Shown here one piece after another: positions 12,142 through 50,254 of a stretch of DNA of 64,000 bases. The position numbers and the translations under genes are program-made. Numbering within the stretch: position 1 is the stretch's first letter; each line of letters starts with the position of its first letter. The notes beneath the pieces are model-generated. The model saw only the letters and a list, made by a program, of their open reading frames with translations. It ran no database searches and was not told the origin of the DNA. The stretch comes from Escherichia coli. GTDB taxonomy: Bacteria > Pseudomonadota > Gammaproteobacteria > Enterobacterales > Enterobacteriaceae. The stretch lies in NCBI RefSeq assembly GCF_003334335.1, contig NZ_QOWQ01000005.1. One strand, given 5' to 3'.

Positions 12142-13586
12142 CGCTGGATACGCTTAATGTGATGCTGGCCGTCAGCGAAGAGGGATTGATCGAAGAGATG
12201 ATCATCGCACTGCTGGCCTCACCGCAGCTGGCGGTCTTCTTTGAAAAATTCCCACGCCTGAAGGCGGCAATCACTGATGATGTTCCCCGCTGGCGTGAAG
12301 CGCTGCGCAGTCGGCTGAAAGATGCCCGAGTCCCGCCGGAACTCACCGAAGAGGTGATGTGCTATCAGCAAAGCCAGCTCCTCTCCACGCCACAGTTTAT
12401 TGTGCAGCTACCACAGATCCTGGACTTACTGCATCGTCTGAATTCTCCATGGGCAGAACAAGCCCGACAGTTGGTTGATGCTAACAGCACGATCACTTCA
12501 GCGTTACACACGCTTTTTCTCCAGCGTTGGCGTTTAAGTCTGATCGTGCAAGCAACGACGTTAAATCAACAGCTATTAGAAGAAGAACGCGAACAACTGT
12601 TGAGTGAAGTTCAGGAACGCATGACGCTGAGCGGACAACTTGAACCGATTCTCGCAGATAACAATACTGCAGCTGGTCGTCTGTGGGATATGAGCGCCGG
12701 TCAGCTTAAACGTGGCGACTATCAGTTGATTGTGAAATACGGTGAATTTCTTAACGAACATCCGGAACTGAAACGCCTGGCAGAGCAGCTGGGGCGTTCT
12801 CGGGAAGCCAAATCAATACCGCGCAACGATGCGCAGATGGAAACCTTCCGCACCATGGTGCGCGAACCGGCGACGGTTCCTGAGCAGGTTGATGGTCTGC
12901 AACAAAGCGATGATATTTTACGTCTCCTGCCGCCAGAACTGGCGACACTAGGGATAACGGAACTGGAGTATGAGTTTTACCGTCGGCTGGTGGAAAAACA
13001 GTTGCTCACCTATCGCCTGCACGGTGAGTCGTGGCGTGAAAAAGTGATCGAACGTCCGGTGGTACATAAAGATTACGATGAACAGCCGCGCGGGCCGTTT
13101 ATTGTCTGTGTGGATACTTCCGGCTCAATGGGCGGCTTTAATGAACAGTGTGCGAAAGCGTTCTGCCTGGCCTTGATGCGCATTGCTCTCGCAGAAAACC
13201 GGCGCTGCTATATTATGCTATTTTCCACCGAGATCGTCCGTTATGAGCTTTCAGGCCCACAAGGCATCGAACAAGCAATCCGTTTTTTAAGCCAGCAGTT
13301 TCGTGGCGGCACCGATCTTGCCAGTTGTTTTCGCGCCATTATGGAACGCTTGCAAAGCAGGGAATGGTTTGATGCCGATGCGGTGGTGATTTCTGATTTT
13401 ATCGCTCAGCGGTTGCCTGACGACGTGACGAGTAAAGTGAAAGAGCTGCAGCGGGTACATCAGCATCGCTTTCATGCCGTGGCGATGTCGGCACACGGCA
13501 AACCCGGCATCATGCGCATTTTCGATCATATCTGGCGCTTTGATACCGGGATGCGAAGCCGCCTGCTCAGACGCTGGCGGCGATAA
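12135..13586 (+). CDS. viaA: VWA-domain protein ViaA (RavA partner)
   Basis: ORF track 12135..13586, 483 aa; the start overlaps the ravA stop by 7 nt. Confidence 0.93.
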
Positions 13587-14734: not shown

Positions 14735-15193
14735 ATGGAAAATTATCTGATCGACAATCTGGACCGTGGCATCCTGGAAGCATTAATGGGCAATGCGCGC
14801 ACCGCTTACGCCGAACTGGCGAAACAATTTGGCGTCAGTCCGGGGACGATTCACGTTCGAGTAGAGAAAATGAAGCAGGCGGGGATCATTACCGGGGCGC
14901 GTATTGATGTCAGCCCGAAGCAGCTCGGTTATGACGTAGGCTGCTTTATCGGCATTATATTAAAGAGCGCCAAAGACTACCCTTCCGCGCTGGCAAAGCT
15001 GGAAAGCCTTGATGAAGTCACTGAAGCCTATTACACAACCGGCCACTACAGCATCTTTATAAAAGTGATGTGCCGTTCGATCGACGCTCTCCAGCATGTA
15101 CTTATCAACAAGATCCAAACAATTGATGAAATTCAGTCCACCGAGACATTGATCGTCCTGCAAAACCCGATCATGCGTACCATCAAGCCCTGA
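14735..15193 (+). CDS. asnC: Lrp/AsnC-family transcriptional regulator AsnC
   Basis: ORF track 14735..15193, 152 aa; divergent from asnA. Confidence 0.96.
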   Translation: MENYLIDNLDRGILEALMGNARTAYAELAKQFGVSPGTIHVRVEKMKQAGIITGARIDVSPKQLGYDVGCFIGIILKSAKDYPSALAKLESLDEVTEAYYTTGHYSIFIKVMCRSIDALQHVLINKIQTIDEIQSTETLIVLQNPIMRTIKP

Positions 15194-15215
15194 TCGGCTT
15201 TTTTAATCCCATACT

Positions 15216-15224
15216 TTTCCACAG
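15216..15224 (+). promoter_or_regulatory. DnaA-box-like 9-mer (TTTTCCACA) in the mioC promoter region
   Basis: 9-mer with one mismatch to TTATCCACA, located between asnC and mioC; mioC transcription is known to be DnaA-regulated. Confidence 0.55.
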
Positions 15225-15282: not shown

Positions 15283-15726
15283 ATGGCAGATATCACTCTT
15301 ATCAGCGGCAGCACCCTCGGCGGTGCCGAATATGTAGCAGAACACCTGGCTGAAAAGCTGGAAGAGGCGGGTTTTACCACCGAAACGCTGCACGGTCCGC
15401 TGTTAGAAGATTTACCTGCCTCAGGGATCTGGCTGGTTATCAGCTCCACCCACGGTGCCGGAGATATTCCGGACAACCTTTCTCCTTTCTATGAAGCATT
15501 GCAGGAACAGAAGCCCGATCTTTCTGCAGTCCGCTTTGGCGCAATCGGTATTGGCAGTCGTGAATATGACACCTTTTGTGGGGCTATCGATAAACTCGAG
15601 GCAGAACTCAAAAATTCCGGTGCAAAACAGACAGGCGAAACACTGAAGATCAACATTCTTGATCACGACATTCCGGAAGATCCGGCAGAAGAATGGCTGG
15701 GATCGTGGGTTAATTTACTCAAATAA
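15283..15726 (+). CDS. mioC: FMN-binding flavodoxin-like protein MioC
   Basis: ORF track 15283..15726, 147 aa, N-terminus MADITLISGSTLGGAEYVAEHLAEKL. Confidence 0.96.
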   Translation: MADITLISGSTLGGAEYVAEHLAEKLEEAGFTTETLHGPLLEDLPASGIWLVISSTHGAGDIPDNLSPFYEALQEQKPDLSAVRFGAIGIGSREYDTFCGAIDKLEAELKNSGAKQTGETLKINILDHDIPEDPAEEWLGSWVNLLK

Positions 15727-15748
15727 GTATACAGATCGTGCGATCTAC

Positions 15749-15757
15749 TGTGGATAA
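15749..15757 (-). promoter_or_regulatory. DnaA box R4 (TTATCCACA)
   Basis: Exact consensus 9-mer on the minus strand at the mioC-proximal edge of oriC. Confidence 0.9.
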
Positions 15758-15787
15758 CTCTGTCAGGAAGCTTGGATCAACCGGTAG

Positions 15788-15796
15788 TTATCCAAA
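15788..15796 (+). promoter_or_regulatory. DnaA box R3 (TTATCCAAA)
   Basis: 9-mer read directly; position is consistent with R3. Confidence 0.8.
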
Positions 15797-15822
15797 GAAC
15801 AACTGTTGTTCAGTTTTTGAGT

Positions 15823-15831
15823 TGTGTATAA
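15823..15831 (-). promoter_or_regulatory. DnaA box R2 (TTATACACA)
   Basis: Plus strand reads tgtgtataa, the reverse complement of TTATACACA. Confidence 0.85.
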
Positions 15832-15873
15832 CCCCTCATTCTGATCCCAGCTTATACGATCCAGGATCACCGA

Positions 15874-15882
15874 TCATTCACA
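15874..15882 (+). promoter_or_regulatory. DnaA box R5M (TCATTCACA)
   Basis: 9-mer read directly, between R2 and R1. Confidence 0.8.
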
Positions 15883-15928
15883 GTTAATGATCCTTTCCAG
15901 GTTGTTGATCTTAAAAGCCGGATCCTTG

Positions 15929-15937
15929 TTATCCACA
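15929..15937 (+). promoter_or_regulatory. DnaA box R1 (TTATCCACA)
   Basis: Exact consensus 9-mer adjacent to the 13-mer region. Confidence 0.9.
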
Positions 15938-15950
15938 GGGCAGTGCGATC

Positions 15951-15994
15951 CTAATAAGAGATCACAATAGAACAGATCTCTAAATAAATAGATC
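15951..15994. repeat. DNA unwinding element: three tandem GATC-anchored A/T-rich 13-mers (R, M, L)
   Basis: Plus strand reads ctaataagagatc (15951-15963), aatagaacagatc (15966-15978) and aaataaatagatc (15982-15994); these are reverse complements of GATCTCTTATTAG, GATCTGTTCTATT and GATCTATTTATTT. Confidence 0.92.
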
Positions 15995-16104
15995 TTCTTT
16001 TTAATACCCAGGATCCCAGGTCTTTCTCAAGCCGACAAAGTTGAGTAGAATCCACGGCCCGGGCTTCAATCCATTTTCATACCGCGTTATGCGAGGCAAT
16101 CACC

Positions 16105-17994
16105 ATGTTTTATCCGGATCCTTTTGACGTCATCATCATTGGCGGGGGTCATGCAGGCACCGAGGCCGCGATGGCCGCGGCGCGTATGGGTCAACAGACT
16201 CTGCTTTTGACACACAATATCGACACTCTGGGGCAGATGAGCTGCAACCCGGCGATCGGCGGTATTGGGAAGGGACATCTGGTAAAAGAAGTGGATGCAC
16301 TCGGCGGTCTGATGGCGAAAGCGATCGATCAGGCGGGTATCCAGTTTAGGATACTAAACGCAAGCAAAGGACCGGCGGTTCGCGCTACCCGAGCTCAGGC
16401 GGATCGTGTGCTCTACCGTCAGGCGGTACGTACGGCGCTGGAGAACCAACCGAACCTGATGATCTTCCAGCAGGCGGTTGAAGATCTTATTGTCGAAAAC
16501 GATCGCGTGGTCGGTGCTGTTACCCAAATGGGACTGAAGTTCCGTGCCAAAGCCGTCGTGCTCACCGTTGGGACGTTCCTCGACGGTAAAATTCATATCG
16601 GTCTGGATAATTACAGCGGTGGCCGTGCTGGTGATCCGCCGTCCATTCCGCTTTCTCGCCGTTTGCGTGAACTGCCGCTGCGCGTTGGTCGTCTGAAAAC
16701 CGGGACACCACCGCGTATTGATGCTCGAACCATCGACTTTAGCGTACTGGCGCAACAGCATGGCGATAACCCAATGCCGGTATTCTCGTTTATGGGCAAT
16801 GCGTCCCAGCATCCCCAGCAGGTGCCGTGTTATATCACTCATACCAACGAGAAAACCCATGATGTGATCCGCAGTAACCTCGATCGTAGCCCAATGTACG
16901 CAGGGGTGATCGAAGGTGTCGGCCCACGCTACTGCCCGTCGATCGAAGACAAAGTCATGCGCTTCGCCGACAGAAATCAGCATCAGATCTTCCTTGAACC
17001 GGAAGGACTGACCTCTAATGAAATTTATCCGAACGGTATCTCCACCAGCCTGCCGTTCGATGTGCAGATGCAAATCGTCCGCTCTATGCAGGGGATGGAA
17101 AACGCGAAGATCGTGCGTCCGGGTTATGCCATTGAGTATGACTTCTTCGATCCTCGCGACCTGAAACCGACGCTGGAGAGCAAGTTTATCCAGGGGCTGT
17201 TCTTTGCTGGTCAGATTAACGGCACTACCGGTTACGAAGAAGCCGCTGCGCAAGGTTTGCTGGCCGGTCTTAACGCTGCCCGTCTGTCTGCTGACAAAGA
17301 AGGTTGGGCTCCGGCACGTTCTCAGGCGTATCTCGGCGTACTAGTTGATGACCTGTGCACTTTAGGAACCAAAGAACCGTATCGTATGTTTACTTCGCGC
17401 GCAGAATATCGTCTGATGCTACGCGAAGATAATGCGGATCTGCGTTTGACTGAAATCGGTCGTGAACTGGGCCTGGTGGATGACGAACGTTGGGCGCGCT
17501 TTAACGAGAAACTTGAGAATATCGAGCGTGAGCGTCAGCGTCTGAAATCGACCTGGGTAACCCCGTCGGCGGAAGCTGCAGCCGAAGTGAATGCTCACCT
17601 GACTGCGCCGCTTTCCCGTGAAGCCAGTGGTGAAGATCTGCTGCGTCGTCCGGAAATGACTTATGAAAAATTAACCACGCTGACGCCGTTTGCCCCTGCG
17701 TTGACAGACGAACAGGCGGCGGAACAGGTTGAGATTCAGGTTAAATACGAAGGTTATATCGCGCGCCAGCAAGATGAGATCGAAAAGCAGCTGCGTAACG
17801 AGAACACCCTGCTACCCGCGACACTGGATTACCGCCAGGTATCCGGTCTTTCTAACGAAGTGATCGCCAAACTTAACGATCACAAACCAGCCTCTATCGG
17901 CCAAGCTTCGCGTATTTCTGGCGTCACGCCTGCGGCCATCTCCATTCTGCTGGTGTGGCTGAAAAAACAGGGTATGCTGCGTCGTAGCGCATAA
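16105..17994 (+). CDS. mnmG: tRNA uridine 5-carboxymethylaminomethyl modification enzyme MnmG (GidA)
   Basis: ORF track 16105..17994, 629 aa; N-terminal FAD-binding motif [13 protein letters not shown]. Confidence 0.97.
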
Positions 17995-35080: not shown

Positions 35081-43764
<8,684 letters not shown>

Positions 43765-44232
43765 TTAACTTAAAGAGTCTGTTTCAGGACATGAAATATC
43801 CAATCCGGGTAGACGGGGAATGATTCTGCTCATCACCACACCTGCCAGCAATGCAGGAATGATGCGGACAACGAGACTGTCACCAGAAAGAATGTTTTCA
43901 AACAACTCCGAGGAAGCCATGCCCTTAATATGTACAATAACTGCACAATAGATCTCGGTGATAACGACGCCACCTATGCCACCAGCCAGACAACGATAAC
44001 GTTTCTGTGACCCGATCTTTTCCGGCAGACAGGCAACCATTACACCGGTTAACAACGCAGGAATAGCTCCCGTAGTTATCGACAATAAGAGAAAAATTGG
44101 ATGTATTATCACCCAAAGAACCAGCGGTTCTTTTGCGAAGAATATGTAGAGGACAAGAAACAGAACACCAATTAACGGTCCTAAAACTGCAAAATAAAGT
44201 CCGTGATGTATTACCCGACGTGAAACAGACAT
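43765..44232 (-). CDS. cbrB: inner membrane protein CbrB
   Basis: ORF track 43765..44232, 155 aa, hydrophobic. Confidence 0.88.
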   Translation of the reverse strand: MSVSRRVIHHGLYFAVLGPLIGVLFLVLYIFFAKEPLVLWVIIHPIFLLLSITTGAIPALLTGVMVACLPEKIGSQKRYRCLAGGIGGVVITEIYCAVIVHIKGMASSELFENILSGDSLVVRIIPALLAGVVMSRIIPRLPGLDISCPETDSLS

Positions 44233-44298
44233 ATCAAACTCCCTTTACTTACCTTTGAGCGCCAATTTAAGCGGGGTAAGTGAAGGGAGTGTGAAGAA

Positions 44299-44964
44299 CT
44301 ATGCCGTAATATCCCAACCACGCGCTTTCCACAGTTCAGGTAACTGCGAAAGATGGGTAAAGGTGGTGACTTTCGGGTGAACGATCGGCTTATTGTGCGG
44401 GTCGGCGCAGAAGTAGAACACTTCCATACCTGCGTCGATACCAGATTGTGCACCGGCAACTGAGTCATCAACCAGAATGCAGTTTTCTACATTTACATTC
44501 ATCGCTTTTGCCGCATGGAACATTAACGCCGGGTCTGGCTTCCAGCGCTGAATATCGTAGCCGCTGAACAGTTTATCCGGGAAGTAGTGCAACATATTCA
44601 GCTTGCCCATAGAATGCTGCATTTTGTTATTTGGGCCGTTAGATACCACACACATTGGCGCAGTGATCGCTGACAGGAGCGCTCCAGCCCCTTCGATGGC
44701 TTCCAGTTCTGAATCGAACAGCCGAGCGACTTCTGCACGGTAAACGTGTTCAGCTTCTGTTTTCGCTAACGTAACACCATGTTCAAGGGAAACAATATCG
44801 ATAATTTCGTACAGTTTTACACCTTTGAAACGTTTGAATACCTCTTCAGGATCGAGCGTAATACCAAATTCCTGAAACATCGTTACATATGCGCGAGAGC
44901 AAATGACTTCACTGTCGACCAGCGTACCGTCGCAGTCGAAAAATACCGCTTCTATCCGGGACAT
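44299..44964 (-). CDS. yieH: HAD-superfamily phosphatase (6-phosphogluconate phosphatase)
   Basis: ORF track 44299..44964, 221 aa; HAD motif I FFDCDGTLVDSE. Confidence 0.92.
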   Translation of the reverse strand: MSRIEAVFFDCDGTLVDSEVICSRAYVTMFQEFGITLDPEEVFKRFKGVKLYEIIDIVSLEHGVTLAKTEAEHVYRAEVARLFDSELEAIEGAGALLSAITAPMCVVSNGPNNKMQHSMGKLNMLHYFPDKLFSGYDIQRWKPDPALMFHAAKAMNVNVENCILVDDSVAGAQSGIDAGMEVFYFCADPHNKPIVHPKVTTFTHLSQLPELWKARGWDITA

Positions 44965-45128
44965 GCCTTTCCTTTTTAATCAGTTTAACGTTTTCGTAGA
45001 GCCGATTTGCGCAACGCAATCGTTGCCGTATAAGTAAATCCAATAAAAAAGTCTCTCACAAACGCGCCTATTGTCGCATTTTGGTATACGATAGCGACGG
45101 ATTTTCCCTCCTTGTTCGGAAATAGATA

Positions 45129-46466
45129 ATGAGTCATCAACATACCACCCAGACTTCTGGTCAGGGGATGCTGGAACGCGTGTTTAAACTGCGCGAACAT
45201 GGCACGACGGCACGGACCGAAGTGATCGCCGGTTTTACCACCTTCCTGACGATGGTTTACATCGTTTTTGTTAACCCGCAAATTCTTGGCGTTGCTGGCA
45301 TGGATACCAGCGCCGTCTTCGTCACTACCTGTCTGATCGCTGCATTCGGCAGTATTATGATGGGACTATTTGCTAACCTGCCAGTTGCACTGGCACCCGC
45401 TATGGGCCTGAATGCGTTCTTCGCTTTTGTCGTTGTACAGGCGATGGGCTTGCCGTGGCAGGTCGGGATGGGCGCAATCTTCTGGGGCGCGATAGGTCTG
45501 CTGTTACTGACGATTTTCCGCGTTCGCTACTGGATGATAGCCAACATTCCGGTGAGTCTGCGTGTGGGTATTACCAGCGGTATCGGTCTGTTCATTGGCA
45601 TGATGGGGCTGAAAAACGCAGGTGTGATTGTCGCTAACCCGGAAACGCTGGTGAGCATCGGTAATCTGACTTCTCACAGCGTACTTCTGGGTATCCTCGG
45701 CTTCTTCATCATTGCTATTCTGGCCTCGCGCAACATTCACGCAGCGGTGCTGGTTTCTATCGTGGTGACGACGCTGCTGGGCTGGATGCTGGGTGATGTG
45801 CACTACAATGGCATCGTTTCTGCGCCGCCGAGCGTAATGACAGTTGTGGGTCATGTAGATTTAGCCGGGTCGTTTAACCTCGGGCTGGCAGGGGTGATTT
45901 TCTCTTTCATGTTGGTCAACTTGTTTGACTCCTCCGGTACGCTGATTGGCGTGACCGATAAAGCAGGTCTGGCGGATGAGAAGGGGAAATTCCCGCGCAT
46001 GAAGCAGGCGCTGTATGTCGACAGTATCTCTTCCGTGACCGGTTCGTTTATCGGTACTTCTTCCGTTACGGCTTATATTGAGTCCTCTTCCGGCGTATCG
46101 GTTGGCGGTCGTACCGGTCTGACGGCAGTGGTTGTTGGTCTGCTGTTCCTGCTGGTTATCTTTCTGTCGCCGCTGGCGGGGATGGTGCCAGGCTACGCTG
46201 CAGCTGGTGCGCTGATTTACGTTGGCGTGCTGATGACTTCCAGTCTGGCACGCGTGAACTGGCAGGATCTTACTGAATCTGTTCCGGCGTTTATTACCGC
46301 CGTGATGATGCCGTTCAGCTTCTCGATTACCGAAGGTATCGCGCTGGGCTTTATCTCCTACTGCGTGATGAAAATCGGTACCGGACGTCTGCGTGATCTA
46401 AGCCCGTGCGTAATCATCGTTGCGCTGCTGTTTATCCTGAAGATTGTCTTTATCGACGCTCACTAA
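45129..46466 (+). CDS. adeP: adenine permease (NCS2/AzgA family)
   Basis: ORF track 45129..46466, 445 aa, MSHQHTTQTSGQGMLERVFKL. Confidence 0.93.
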   Translation: MSHQHTTQTSGQGMLERVFKLREHGTTARTEVIAGFTTFLTMVYIVFVNPQILGVAGMDTSAVFVTTCLIAAFGSIMMGLFANLPVALAPAMGLNAFFAFVVVQAMGLPWQVGMGAIFWGAIGLLLLTIFRVRYWMIANIPVSLRVGITSGIGLFIGMMGLKNAGVIVANPETLVSIGNLTSHSVLLGILGFFIIAILASRNIHAAVLVSIVVTTLLGWMLGDVHYNGIVSAPPSVMTVVGHVDLAGSFNLGLAGVIFSFMLVNLFDSSGTLIGVTDKAGLADEKGKFPRMKQALYVDSISSVTGSFIGTSSVTAYIESSSGVSVGGRTGLTAVVVGLLFLLVIFLSPLAGMVPGYAAAGALIYVGVLMTSSLARVNWQDLTESVPAFITAVMMPFSFSITEGIALGFISYCVMKIGTGRLRDLSPCVIIVALLFILKIVFIDAH

Positions 46467-46481
46467 AATCGATAGCGCGTT

Positions 46482-46517
46482 AAAAACCCGCCATGCATGA
46501 TTGCTGGCGGGTTTTTT
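46482..46517. terminator. bidirectional intrinsic terminator between adeP and chrR
   Basis: aaaaa-cccgcca...tggcggg-tttttt: a GC stem flanked by an A run and a T run, so it is usable on both strands. Confidence 0.8.
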
Positions 46518-46519
46518 AT

Positions 46520-47086
46520 TTAGATCTTAACTCGCTGAATAAACTCACCAAATGCGGTCAATTGCCCGGTCAGGTGGTCCAGCGTACCCTGATCAATCAC
46601 TTCTCCGGTTTGCGGATCAACTTTGTTCTGAATCACGCCGCCCATAAATTCCGGCTTGTTCATCACCATTGCATCGAGGAAAACCAGAATCTGGCGCAGG
46701 TGATACTGACAGCGCGCGCCGCCAATCACGCCCATTGAGCTGGTCTGAATCAATACCGGTTTACCGGCCAGCGGTTGATCCGGCAGGCGGGAAAGCCAGT
46801 CGATGGCATTTTTCAGCCCACCCGGTACCGAGTAGTTATATTCCGGCGTGACGATCACCACACCGTCAGCCTGACGGATCTGTTCCGCCAGAGCTTCAAC
46901 CGTTGCTGGAAAACCTTCTTCCTGCTGTACGTCAGCGTCATACAAGGGAATGTCGGCAATGGATGGTAACGCATTGACTTCCATGCTCGCCGGAGCAATT
47001 TTCGGCAGGGTACGTGCAACCATGCCATTAAATGAGCCTTTGCGCAGGCTCCCCAGTAACGTAACCACCTGCAATTTTTCAGACAT
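46520..47086 (-). CDS. chrR: NAD(P)H-dependent FMN reductase / chromate reductase
   Basis: ORF track 46520..47086, 188 aa, flavodoxin-like N-terminus VVTLLGSLRKGSFN. Confidence 0.92.
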   Translation of the reverse strand: MSEKLQVVTLLGSLRKGSFNGMVARTLPKIAPASMEVNALPSIADIPLYDADVQQEEGFPATVEALAEQIRQADGVVIVTPEYNYSVPGGLKNAIDWLSRLPDQPLAGKPVLIQTSSMGVIGGARCQYHLRQILVFLDAMVMNKPEFMGGVIQNKVDPQTGEVIDQGTLDHLTGQLTAFGEFIQRVKI

Positions 47087-47107
47087 GATGACTCCTGTGG
47101 TTGTCTA

Positions 47108-47869
47108 TCAATTTGGCGAAAAAGCCTTCACGGTAGAGAGTTGGGCAAAACGCATCATCCGGCTGGTAGGATTGTTGGCGCGGCTGTGAATATCCGGCAG
47201 GCTTTTCCAGCCGTGTTTGCCATCTAACTCCCAGACACTGAGCTTTTCAATCGTGGGCGTGACCGCCACGGACCACACCAGCACGTCTTCCGCGTCGCAT
47301 AACGCTTCTACATGATTTACATGAGCACATTTCAGGCGTCCGGCAATGGGCAGCAGCTGCAGATCGCGCGGATCGTCATTCAAAACATCACCGGTTAGTT
47401 TTAGCACGCTTCGGCGCAGCGTGATGAGCTGCGCCCGCGCTTCGTTAGGATCGTTTTGTTTACTGATCCATAGCGATTCATTGCTGGAAAAGGTGTGGTT
47501 ATCGGGCGCGTGTGGGCTATGAAACCCGCGCGTCGCACGCTGTAGTTCCATATCGAGGCCACATTCACCTTCGGTTGTTAACGCCACGCCAACCATATTC
47601 CCGGCATAGGAAATGGAAAACGAAGGCAAATTTTTATCACTGAAAACCGGTTTACCTTTCGGCAGGGTGACGATTTCCGGCAATTCGCCAATGCCATACA
47701 GCATGAACATCAGTTCTGCGAGTAAACCTCTGGACGCCAGAAAACGGCTTTGACGATGAGGGGGAATGTTTCGGGCTTCTTGATGACACTGGGAGGGGAG
47801 ACGAACAGAAATCAGATGTCCTTCCGTTAAAATCCCTCGGGCAAAGTGAGTCGCCATTTTTCGCTCCAT
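47108..47869 (-). CDS. yieE: putative phosphopantetheinyl transferase-like protein
   Basis: ORF track 47108..47869, 253 aa; exact start uncertain (an alternative ATG lies 4 codons in). Confidence 0.85.
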   Translation of the reverse strand: MERKMATHFARGILTEGHLISVRLPSQCHQEARNIPPHRQSRFLASRGLLAELMFMLYGIGELPEIVTLPKGKPVFSDKNLPSFSISYAGNMVGVALTTEGECGLDMELQRATRGFHSPHAPDNHTFSSNESLWISKQNDPNEARAQLITLRRSVLKLTGDVLNDDPRDLQLLPIAGRLKCAHVNHVEALCDAEDVLVWSVAVTPTIEKLSVWELDGKHGWKSLPDIHSRANNPTSRMMRFAQLSTVKAFSPN

Positions 47870-48013
47870 GCTTAATGGTCCATTATGAATACAAGAGTAA
47901 TCATTTACTGGAATGATGGACAGACTAAAGCGGCTAAAAGTTCGATTCAGACAAGCTTATTACAACTTTTTTACATTTTATTGTGAAATTGGGTCGCGTT
48001 TCATACGATTCGG

Positions 48014-48973
48014 TTATGCCATCGACGCGTAAAGGTTTTTAATGGTTTCCCGTAACCAGACGATCTTCGGATTATGGCTGTTCCGTTTATGCCACAGCAG
48101 GGTAAAAGGAACTTCCAGCTTTTTTTGCTGGCTTTCGTCAAACGGGAGAGGAAGAGCAACCAACGGCAGTTGATGGAGTTGATTGTAGTACTGACAGTAG
48201 CGCGGCGCGGTCGCCAGTAGCAGATTGTCGGGTTGCGCTGCCATAAACAGTGACTGCTCGAATTCCGGCAGGCTCATAGCAATCGTGCGTTCGCGTCCCA
48301 GCTCCTGTAACACATTGTCCAGCGCCCAGGTATCGCTCTGTTCCCAGCAAATGCTGATATGCGGATAACGTAAGAAGGTGTCCAGATTCCACGTTTGATG
48401 CAGTGCCGGATGATCTTTGCGTAACCAGACGCAGGGCACATCACTAAACAGCACTTCATAATCAATGGCTAACGGTAGCGAGCTTAACAGCTCCCGCGAG
48501 CGAGGATGGCTTTCGCGACCGGAAAAACCGATATCCACTTCACCACGAGTAATGGCATCTAAGGAATCGTAATCCCAGTTACGTAATTTGATGGTCGCCT
48601 GCGGGTAACGTTGGTAGATCTGTTTCGACAGCGCATTAAGCATGATCATCATCAGCGGTGATTCCGCCGCCAGCTCAAACTTCAGGCCGCGCGGTGTCTG
48701 GTGGTGCGGTTTATCCAGCAGCAGGTTGCTCATTTGCATCCACTCCGCCAGATTTTGCTCCATGCTGACCATCAGCGGTGTGGGCGACAGACCCAGCGGT
48801 GAGTTCACAAAGAGCGGGTCGTCAAACCACGCTCTTAACTTTGCCAGCGACTTACTCACCGCCGAAGGTGTCACGTTTATCCGCTTCGCCGCTTTGGTTA
48901 CGCTGCGCTCCTGCATCAGCAGTTGCAGACAAAGCAGCAGATTGAGATCAAGCGTGGTGATGGATTTCTTCAT
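48014..48973 (-). CDS. yidZ: LysR-family transcriptional regulator
   Basis: ORF track 48014..48982; the conserved start [17 protein letters not shown] gives 319 aa; the start overlaps the mdtL 3' end by 26 nt. Confidence 0.9.
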
Positions 48974-50123
48974 GAGCGGCAACGGGGCGTCCAGGCGCGA
49001 CGAACATAATCAGCAACAGGCTCACTATGCTACAGGCAATCAGAATCCCGATCAGCATATTCCATGCGCCGATACCAACCACCGCTGCCAGCCAAATCCA
49101 CAGTGACGAACCGCAAACCTGCGCAATACCTAAGGTCGAGCTGGCTACGCCCGCGCGTAATGAAAACGGCCCTAACGCCTGACTCATCGCCACACCAAAA
49201 CCTACCGAGAAACCGGCGCAAATCAGCGTGATACCAAACAGAGAAACCGCATGGGAAGGTGAAACGGCAAGAGTGATCCCCGCCGCCAGGAATAACACCT
49301 GCGAGGTGATCATCAACGTACGTGGCTTAAAAATTCCCAGCGCAAATGGCGTGGAGAATGAAACGGTCATGCTGACGCCAGCGGTCAGCGCCATAATGGT
49401 GGCGTATTCACCGCGCTCAAACCCCATGATTTCCATCAGCAATACCGGTGACGTGTTGACGAAAGTGAGGATCACCGAAACGCTGAGGGTGGTGATAACA
49501 ACACGGCTGAGGAAAAAACGGTTAAGCAGCGACTCGCTATTTTCTCGTGGTTTATCCGAAGCTGCGGGGGCCGCTGGGCGCGTTTCTTTTAAAATAAACA
49601 AAGACAACATCAGTACCGCGATGCCCATCATTGCCATCGCCCAGAACAGACTCTGCCACGGGAATTTAAGCATAATCAGATGTCCGAGCACTGGCGCTAA
49701 CACCGGAATGATGCAGGTAATACCGTTGAGTAATGACAGCACTTTAGCCCGACGTCGATCATCCAGCGTGTCGCGCAAAATAGCGAACGCCACTACGTAA
49801 CAACAGCCTGCGCCCAACCCCTGTAGAAATCGGCCTGCAAGAAATAACGTGCTGGTTTCAGCCAGTGAACAGAACACCGAGGCAATAATAAATAGCGCCG
49901 CGCCGGGTATGGCGACCGGCTTTCTCCCTGAACGATCGGCCACTTTACCGGCAAATAACATCGCAGCTGCCATCCCCGCCAGATATACGGAGAACGCAAT
50001 ATGCAACTGCGCTTCGCTGGCATTGAGATCGGCGGCGATGCGCGGTAAACCAACGAGGTACATATCAATCCCGGCGGGATAAAGTAAAACCAGGGCAAAA
50101 CTACAAATCAAAAAGCGGGACAT
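48948..50123 (-). CDS. mdtL: MFS multidrug efflux transporter MdtL
   Basis: ORF track 48948..50123, 391 aa, 12-TM-like hydrophobic profile. Confidence 0.93.
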
Positions 50124-50254
50124 GGGCTAAAGCGTCCTGATAGTAAGGTGACGCAAAGCATACGTGGTGAAGGAGGATCAGGCGAGTTGCCATTTGGACA
50201 TAAGTGATTTCCTGAGAGGCAAGAAGCCAGCGAATGGCTGGCTTCTTGAAGGAT

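Follow-up and report, generated by a model that had tools for sequence, protein, structure and literature searches.

The chromosomal replication origin of Escherichia coli, oriC, is among the most intensively studied of replication origins, and its mechanism is established knowledge for the very sequence treated here. In this mechanism DnaA stays on the high-affinity sites R1, R2 and R4, and rising DnaA-ATP then cooperatively fills two opposed low-affinity arrays, of which R5M-tau2-I1-I2 extends from R1 and C1-I3-C2-C3 extends from R4. Bending by IHF between R1 and R5M aids the filling of the arrays, and Fis modulates it. The DnaA oligomer so formed unwinds the A/T-rich 13-mers (DUE), and DnaB is loaded for two forks leaving in opposite directions. 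After initiation, SeqA binds roughly 11 hemimethylated GATC sites and thereby sequesters oriC (PMC4451416); in doing so it blocks the low-affinity sites and keeps the origin from firing again for roughly one third of the cell cycle. Site map and mechanism follow PMC6070618, PMC6158602 and PMC4451416. The current model has eleven DnaA sites: R1, R2 and R4, and eight of low affinity divided equally between two arrays. Neighbours in an array point the same way and are separated by 2 bp, and a putative tau1 site is not bound (PMC6070618, PMC6158602). In an oriC evolved in vitro (Suzuki and Su'etsugu 2025, PMC12342881), G137T in tau2, C150T in I1 and G161T in I2 are numbered from 70 bp upstream of R1.

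The window analysed here is a stretch of 64,000 nucleotides (64 kb) from E. coli. We put the probability that its interval 15745-16016 is the functional chromosomal oriC of a K-12-type strain at about 0.97, and nothing argues against this identification. Pairwise alignment of 15700-16110 with MG1655 finds 410 of 411 bases the same, with one difference, and the whole window is colinear over its full length with NC_000913.3 read as the reverse complement (99.963% identity, 19 mismatches, 4 gap openings). A window coordinate w corresponds to NC_000913.3 position 3941738 - w, and to conventional oriC position p = 16017 - w, where GGATCC defines position 1; the conventional oriC map reads as the reverse complement of the window. 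The earlier note, made from the sequence alone, had described a complete oriC lying between mioC and mnmG in the reverse of the conventional orientation, and had suggested alignment to the annotated origin as a check. Alignment to annotated MG1655 bears out the orientation and the flanking genes alike, and the annotated origin (origin_of_replication oriC, 3925744-3925975) maps to window 15763-15994. The origin is thus one that is already known, ordinary apart from a single private base. It serves mainly for orientation: it ties the window to the K-12 map of E. coli, and it sets the fork directions for any argument about strand bias or gene orientation elsewhere in the 64 kb.

A megablast search with 15700-16110 matched 5,425 of 5,426 complete E. 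coli genomes, every match being chromosomal and in the mioC/mnmG interval; the top identity was 99.8%, with K-12 MG1655 among the genomes that reached it. In about 45 of the 5,426 no single place accounts for as much as 80% of the 411-bp query, one genome lacks a match altogether, and some match in two places. Such odd coverage may reflect origin-proximal insertions, rearrangements or assembly breaks. Table 1 gives the coordinates of the features.

Table 1. Features in and around the origin, in window coordinates. "Conventional" refers to the standard oriC map.
Feature	Position	Strand	Sequence	Remarks
asnC	14735-15193	+		left of oriC; from alignment to annotated MG1655
Perfect DnaA box	15215-15223	+	TTTTCCACA	mioC promoter region, 60 bp upstream of mioC start; motif scan
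mioC	15283-15726	+		transcribed toward and into oriC; from alignment to annotated MG1655
DnaA box R4	15749-15757	-	TTATCCACA	high affinity; conventional 260-268; same as MG1655
Low-affinity DnaA site C1	15761-15769	-	TTCCTGACA	position inferred
Low-affinity DnaA-ATP site I3	15772-15780	-	TTGATCCAA	holds a GATC; position inferred
Low-affinity DnaA-ATP site C2	15783-15791	-	ATAACTACC	position inferred
Classical box R3	15788-15796	+	TTATCCAAA	overlaps C2 and C3 as placed; motif scan
Low-affinity DnaA-ATP site C3	15794-15802	-	TTGTTCTTT	position inferred
Best Fis-like match	15808-15822	.	GTTCAGTTTTTGAGT	adjoins R2; 2 mismatches to loose consensus, weak alone
DnaA box R2	15823-15831	-	TTATACACA	high affinity; conventional 186-194; motif scan
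Low-affinity DnaA-ATP site I2	15841-15849	+	TGGGATCAG (conventional)	conventional 168-176; G161T of PMC12342881 is conventional 170
Low-affinity DnaA-ATP site I1	15852-15860	+	TTATACGAT here, TTATACGGT in MG1655	conventional 157-165; placed by C150T of PMC12342881, which is conventional 159
Low-affinity DnaA-ATP site tau2	15863-15871	+	GGTGATCCT (conventional)	conventional 146-154; G137T of PMC12342881 is conventional 146
DnaA box R5M	15874-15882	+	TCATTCACA	motif scan
IHF-consensus-like 13-mer	15898-15910	-	GATCAACAACCTG	between R1 and R5M; 2 mismatches
DnaA box R1	15929-15937	+	TTATCCACA	high affinity; conventional 80-88; motif scan
DUE 13-mer R	15951-15963	-	GATCTCTTATTAG	motif scan
DUE 13-mer M	15966-15978	-	GATCTGTTCTATT	motif scan
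DUE 13-mer L	15982-15994	-	GATCTATTTATTT	start is conventional 23, left edge of minimal oriC
A/T cluster, then GGATCC	15995-16016	.		A/T cluster 15995-16010; GGATCC 16011-16016 marks conventional 1
Promoter-like site	16024-16051	+	TTCTCA-16-TAGAAT	reads away from oriC into mnmG (gidA); consensus match only
mnmG (gidA)	16105-17994	+		transcribed away from oriC; from alignment to annotated MG1655

Perfect TTWTNCACA boxes begin at 15929, 15823 and 15749 (R1, R2 and R4), so that a stretch of 190 bp contains three of the 11 found in the 64 kb (Poisson P about 6e-6). Direct reading and the motif scan agree with the earlier note that the boxes follow one another in the order R4, R3, R2, R5M, R1. Its count of five DnaA boxes stands for the classical picture but not for current models, in which R3 is outside the 11 functional DnaA sites (PMC6070618). 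The spacing of the boxes, which had been offered as a further check, is canonical, with 180 bp from R1 to R4, as in 110 of 112 Enterobacterales origins.

The coordinates of the left array were fixed from the mutated bases and numbering of PMC12342881, and those of the right array (C1, I3, C2, C3) from the spacing rule of PMC6070618 and PMC6158602 together with the known site sequences; from this placement we infer that C2 and C3 overlap the classical R3. The exact I1 strings were not found in the text of PMC6070618 or PMC5716108, because there the sequences stand in figures. Both opposed arrays (R5M-tau2-I1-I2 and C3-C2-I3-C1) are aligned with MG1655 without a difference except at position 2 of I1. 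The two opposed predicted DnaA arrays are therefore present, as in enterobacterial oriC.

Beside R1, at 15951-16010, stand the three 13-mers and the A/T cluster that the earlier note had reported. Against the consensus GATCTNTTNTTTT, L and M each have 1 mismatch and R has 2, and the 60 bp as a whole are 73% A+T, a value that only 0.5% of the 60-bp windows in the 64 kb reach. GATC sites number 12 in 15745-16010, 14 in 15742-16016 (275 bp) and 15 in 15734-16016, where about 1.5 would be expected (P 1e-8 to 1e-10); in 15750-15994 there are 12 where chance would give 1.3 (P = 2e-8). Nowhere else in the 64 kb are GATC sites so dense. An earlier figure of about 14 GATC sites in roughly 280 bp is right as a count (14 in 275 bp), but one of them, at 15858-15861, comes from a private substitution and is not canonical.

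A consensus scan for IHF sites with WATCAANNNNTTR at up to one mismatch, following the earlier note's suggestion to scan for IHF and Fis sites, found no match inside oriC. At up to two mismatches the window holds 547 matches against 532 expected, no more than chance would give; the IHF-like 13-mer of Table 1 is one such match, and its position agrees with the known IHF site. The stretches with the mapped IHF and Fis sites are 100% the same as in K-12 by alignment.

For comparison with other origins, we retrieved relatives with the R5M-tau2 20-mer, which gave 120 loci across Enterobacterales; 300 bp of each were aligned, representing 112 distinct sequences. Because the search pattern biases the R5M-tau2 columns, these were excluded from averages, and the identity of R5M in 112 of 112 origins, since it lies inside the search 20-mer, is not independent evidence. 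Sampled genera include Escherichia, Citrobacter, Enterobacter, Klebsiella, Serratia, Yersinia, Pantoea, Erwinia, Dickeya, Pectobacterium and others. Across this family R1, R2, R4, the tau2-I1-I2 core, 13-mer R and most GATC sites are conserved, whereas C1, I3 and the spacers diverge among genera. R1 and R4 are 98% conserved, most GATC sites are conserved in more than 90 of the 112 origins, and average column identity is 84% in named features against 63% in non-feature columns. The relatives carry 9-11 GATC sites in the minimal region, while the origin here has 12; at least 12 are found in only 4 of the 112.

Compared with the MG1655 origin (minimal oriC 23-267), all R boxes, 13-mers, canonical GATC sites and the flanking mioC and mnmG are the same, and so are the low-affinity sites except for I1 position 2 (window 15859), which also accounts for the twelfth GATC here. 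A second close match is NC_019049.1, a 4,012-bp E. coli oriC plasmid that has the same 272-bp origin at 99.6% identity (one mismatch in 272). It is an autonomously replicating excised copy, whereas the origin in the window is the chromosomal locus. The match is known by its identity figure, and 99.6% is the value that the reference base at 15859 would give. We presume that this plasmid is the sequenced minichromosome pCM959.

One genome among the relatives drew attention for its copy number. In Serratia sp. DD3 the same oriC-like 300 bp appears on four large contigs (NZ_AYKS02000047, 71, 118 and 123; loci L078-L081). That this genome has four origins was considered and judged less likely, as the loci are 100% the same over all overlaps, up to 8.9 kb; redundant retrieval under several contig names, or a duplicated assembly, is the likeliest account.

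The composition of the two arms agrees with the placement of the origin. At base resolution the cumulative G-C curve reaches its minimum at 16137, which is to the right of the origin by about 120 bp, and GC skew is -0.033 left of the switch and +0.032 right of it; the sign change that the earlier note expected at oriC is there. Its related statement, that the genes on both sides are transcribed in the direction of their forks, is correct for the right side and incorrect for the left. On the right, mnmG, rsmG, atp, glmUS, pst and bgl are on the plus strand and run with the rightward fork. On the left, mioC and asnC, which had been named as co-directional, are head-on to the leftward fork because they are plus-strand reading frames left of oriC. 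Eight left-side genes (asnA, kup and rbsDACBKR) run with the fork, and six (mioC, asnC, viaA, ravA, hsrA and yieP) run against it. Transcription of mioC entering oriC is a textbook feature.

Farther to the right, from about 42000 to 56000, the cumulative GC skew is flat or slightly negative despite the rightward replichore. This stretch coincides with the head-on genes cbrBC, yieH, yieEF, yidZ, mdtL, tnaCAB, mnmE, yidCD, rnpA and rpmH. Stretches of low GC at 34-41 kb are the cryptic bgl operon.

The single difference from MG1655 in the origin region is at 15859, where alignment shows A here and G in the reference, or C158T on the conventional map. Within the I1 9-mer this is position 2, where the consensus has G, the wild type C and this sequence T; neither the old base nor the new one fits the consensus. 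GGACCG thereby becomes GGATCG, with a new GATC at 15858-15861, 7 bp from the tau2 GATC, the twelfth inside minimal oriC; I1 is the only left-array DnaA-ATP site that normally has no GATC. A 61-bp query centred on the variant matched none of 5,424 complete E. coli genomes perfectly, the variant 24-mer found no exact match in species-representative genomes or metagenome contigs, and a search of plasmids with the 272-bp origin found no perfect match. In 117 aligned related origins (112 distinct) the C158 column holds C in 96, G in 12 and A in 9, and T in none, and no GATC occurs at conventional 156-159 in the 112. We considered whether C158T is the in vitro selected I1 mutation C150T and rejected this, since C150T is the adjacent base, conventional 159. 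Both are C-to-T changes within the I1 9-mer, but C150T (PMC12342881) is at position 3 and moves toward consensus T, whereas C158T is at position 2 and does not move toward consensus G.

Elsewhere in the 64 kb there are 13 further private substitutions, at 1252, 3962, 4886, 11682, 12761, 20280, 20823, 30583, 31829, 34519, 43818, 45368 and 52871. Six are nonsynonymous (hsrA R43S, rbsB I192T, viaA Q209H, pstS T124N, pstC P164S and cbrB T139P), six are synonymous and one is intergenic; with the change in oriC (about 14 in all), the ratio of transitions to transversions is 6:8. The best-matching complete genomes score the same as K-12, and none appears to share the private substitutions, which may be real mutations of a divergent or mutagenised K-12-like lineage, or errors. 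Separately, an 80-bp patch at 85-167, between yieP and rrsC, differs from MG1655 by 6 substitutions and 4 small indels. The same 181 bp at this patch are a 100% match to other rrn-operon upstream copies in many genomes, which points to gene conversion among rrn operons or to copies of the repeat being confused in assembly.

That the motifs at 15745-16016 are a chance cluster, or a DnaA-binding region of some other kind such as a titration or regulatory site, is a reading to which we give almost no weight. DnaA-box-like 9-mers do occur elsewhere in the window, for example in viaA and in the dnaA promoter box at 57791. Against this stand near-identity to an experimentally defined origin, the full architecture of DUE, R boxes and GATC sites, the GC-skew switch at the site, and a layout conserved across Enterobacterales; it is the sequence identity to K-12 oriC that refutes the non-origin reading. 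The functional oriC is thus retained, and what has to be weighed is the meaning of its one private base. One substitution in oriC is unremarkable, because a rate of about 2e-4 per base gives 0.06 expected in 266 bp, and for C158T the likeliest explanation is either a private change without effect or an error in the sequence, the neutrality of a change in I1 being here an assumption. For error taken by itself, whether of sequencing or assembly or as deliberate noise, with the exact K-12 oriC as the true sequence, we would offer somewhat less than even odds. The private differences are evenly spread, with near-random ratios of transitions to transversions and of synonymous to nonsynonymous changes; the best-matching K-12-like genomes, all equal in score, share none of them; and the exact match of patch 85-167 to other rrn-upstream copies suggests a repeat mix-up, or else gene conversion. 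However, frameshifts are absent, indels are confined to the rrn-upstream patch, and half of the coding changes are synonymous where random error would be expected to give roughly 25%.

It is unlikely, in our estimation, that the origin is functional and C158T a real mutation with a phenotype, that is, one altering the filling of the left array by DnaA-ATP or lengthening sequestration, with shifted timing. Such a mutation would act through the change at I1 position 2 together with a twelfth Dam/SeqA site, 7 bp away from the GATC of tau2. No other sequence searched has the variant, its column tolerates C, G and A but never T, altering just one of the sites tau2, I1 and I2 shifts the timing of initiation measurably (PMC6070618 Table 1), and the neighbouring C150T (conventional 159) belongs to a DnaA-competing tau2-I1-I2 triple that was selected in vitro (PMC12342881). 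Yet the base is non-consensus with or without the change, the published timing mutants deliberately moved sites toward DnaA-ADP binding, and scattered private substitutions with 6:8 transitions to transversions and 6:6 synonymous to nonsynonymous changes resemble unselected mutation or error. That T is missing from an otherwise variable column could mean that T is selected against. The fuller proposal, that C158T is real, that a GATC inside I1 changes DnaA-ATP loading or sequestration and so shifts initiation timing, and that its absence elsewhere reflects selection, seems to us a shade less probable again. If real, the substitution would be a natural single-base probe of the interplay between a low-affinity DnaA-ATP site and SeqA sequestration.

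Three further places in the window carry DnaA-box-like sequences. Ahead of the perfect box upstream of mioC (Table 1), where asnC ends, stands a terminator-like hairpin (15185-15200); the region of the box is the mioC promoter region, known to be repressed by DnaA. Inside viaA, five one-mismatch DnaA-box-like 9-mers in mixed orientation lie within 240 bp (12989-13229), a count equal to that of oriC at the same stringency, without a GATC or A/T signature. The viaA cluster is probably due to chance, and borderline in this respect because there are 117 one-mismatch matches per 64 kb. The dnaA promoter region (57557-57820) lies upstream of dnaA at about 58009, and the minus-strand box there, at 57791-57799, is the sole perfect TTATCCACA of the window outside oriC. 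The second-densest GATC cluster in the window is also found at the dnaA promoter (about 57660-57905), with 9 sites in 245 bp, and both box and cluster fit DnaA autoregulation and SeqA sequestration of dnaA.
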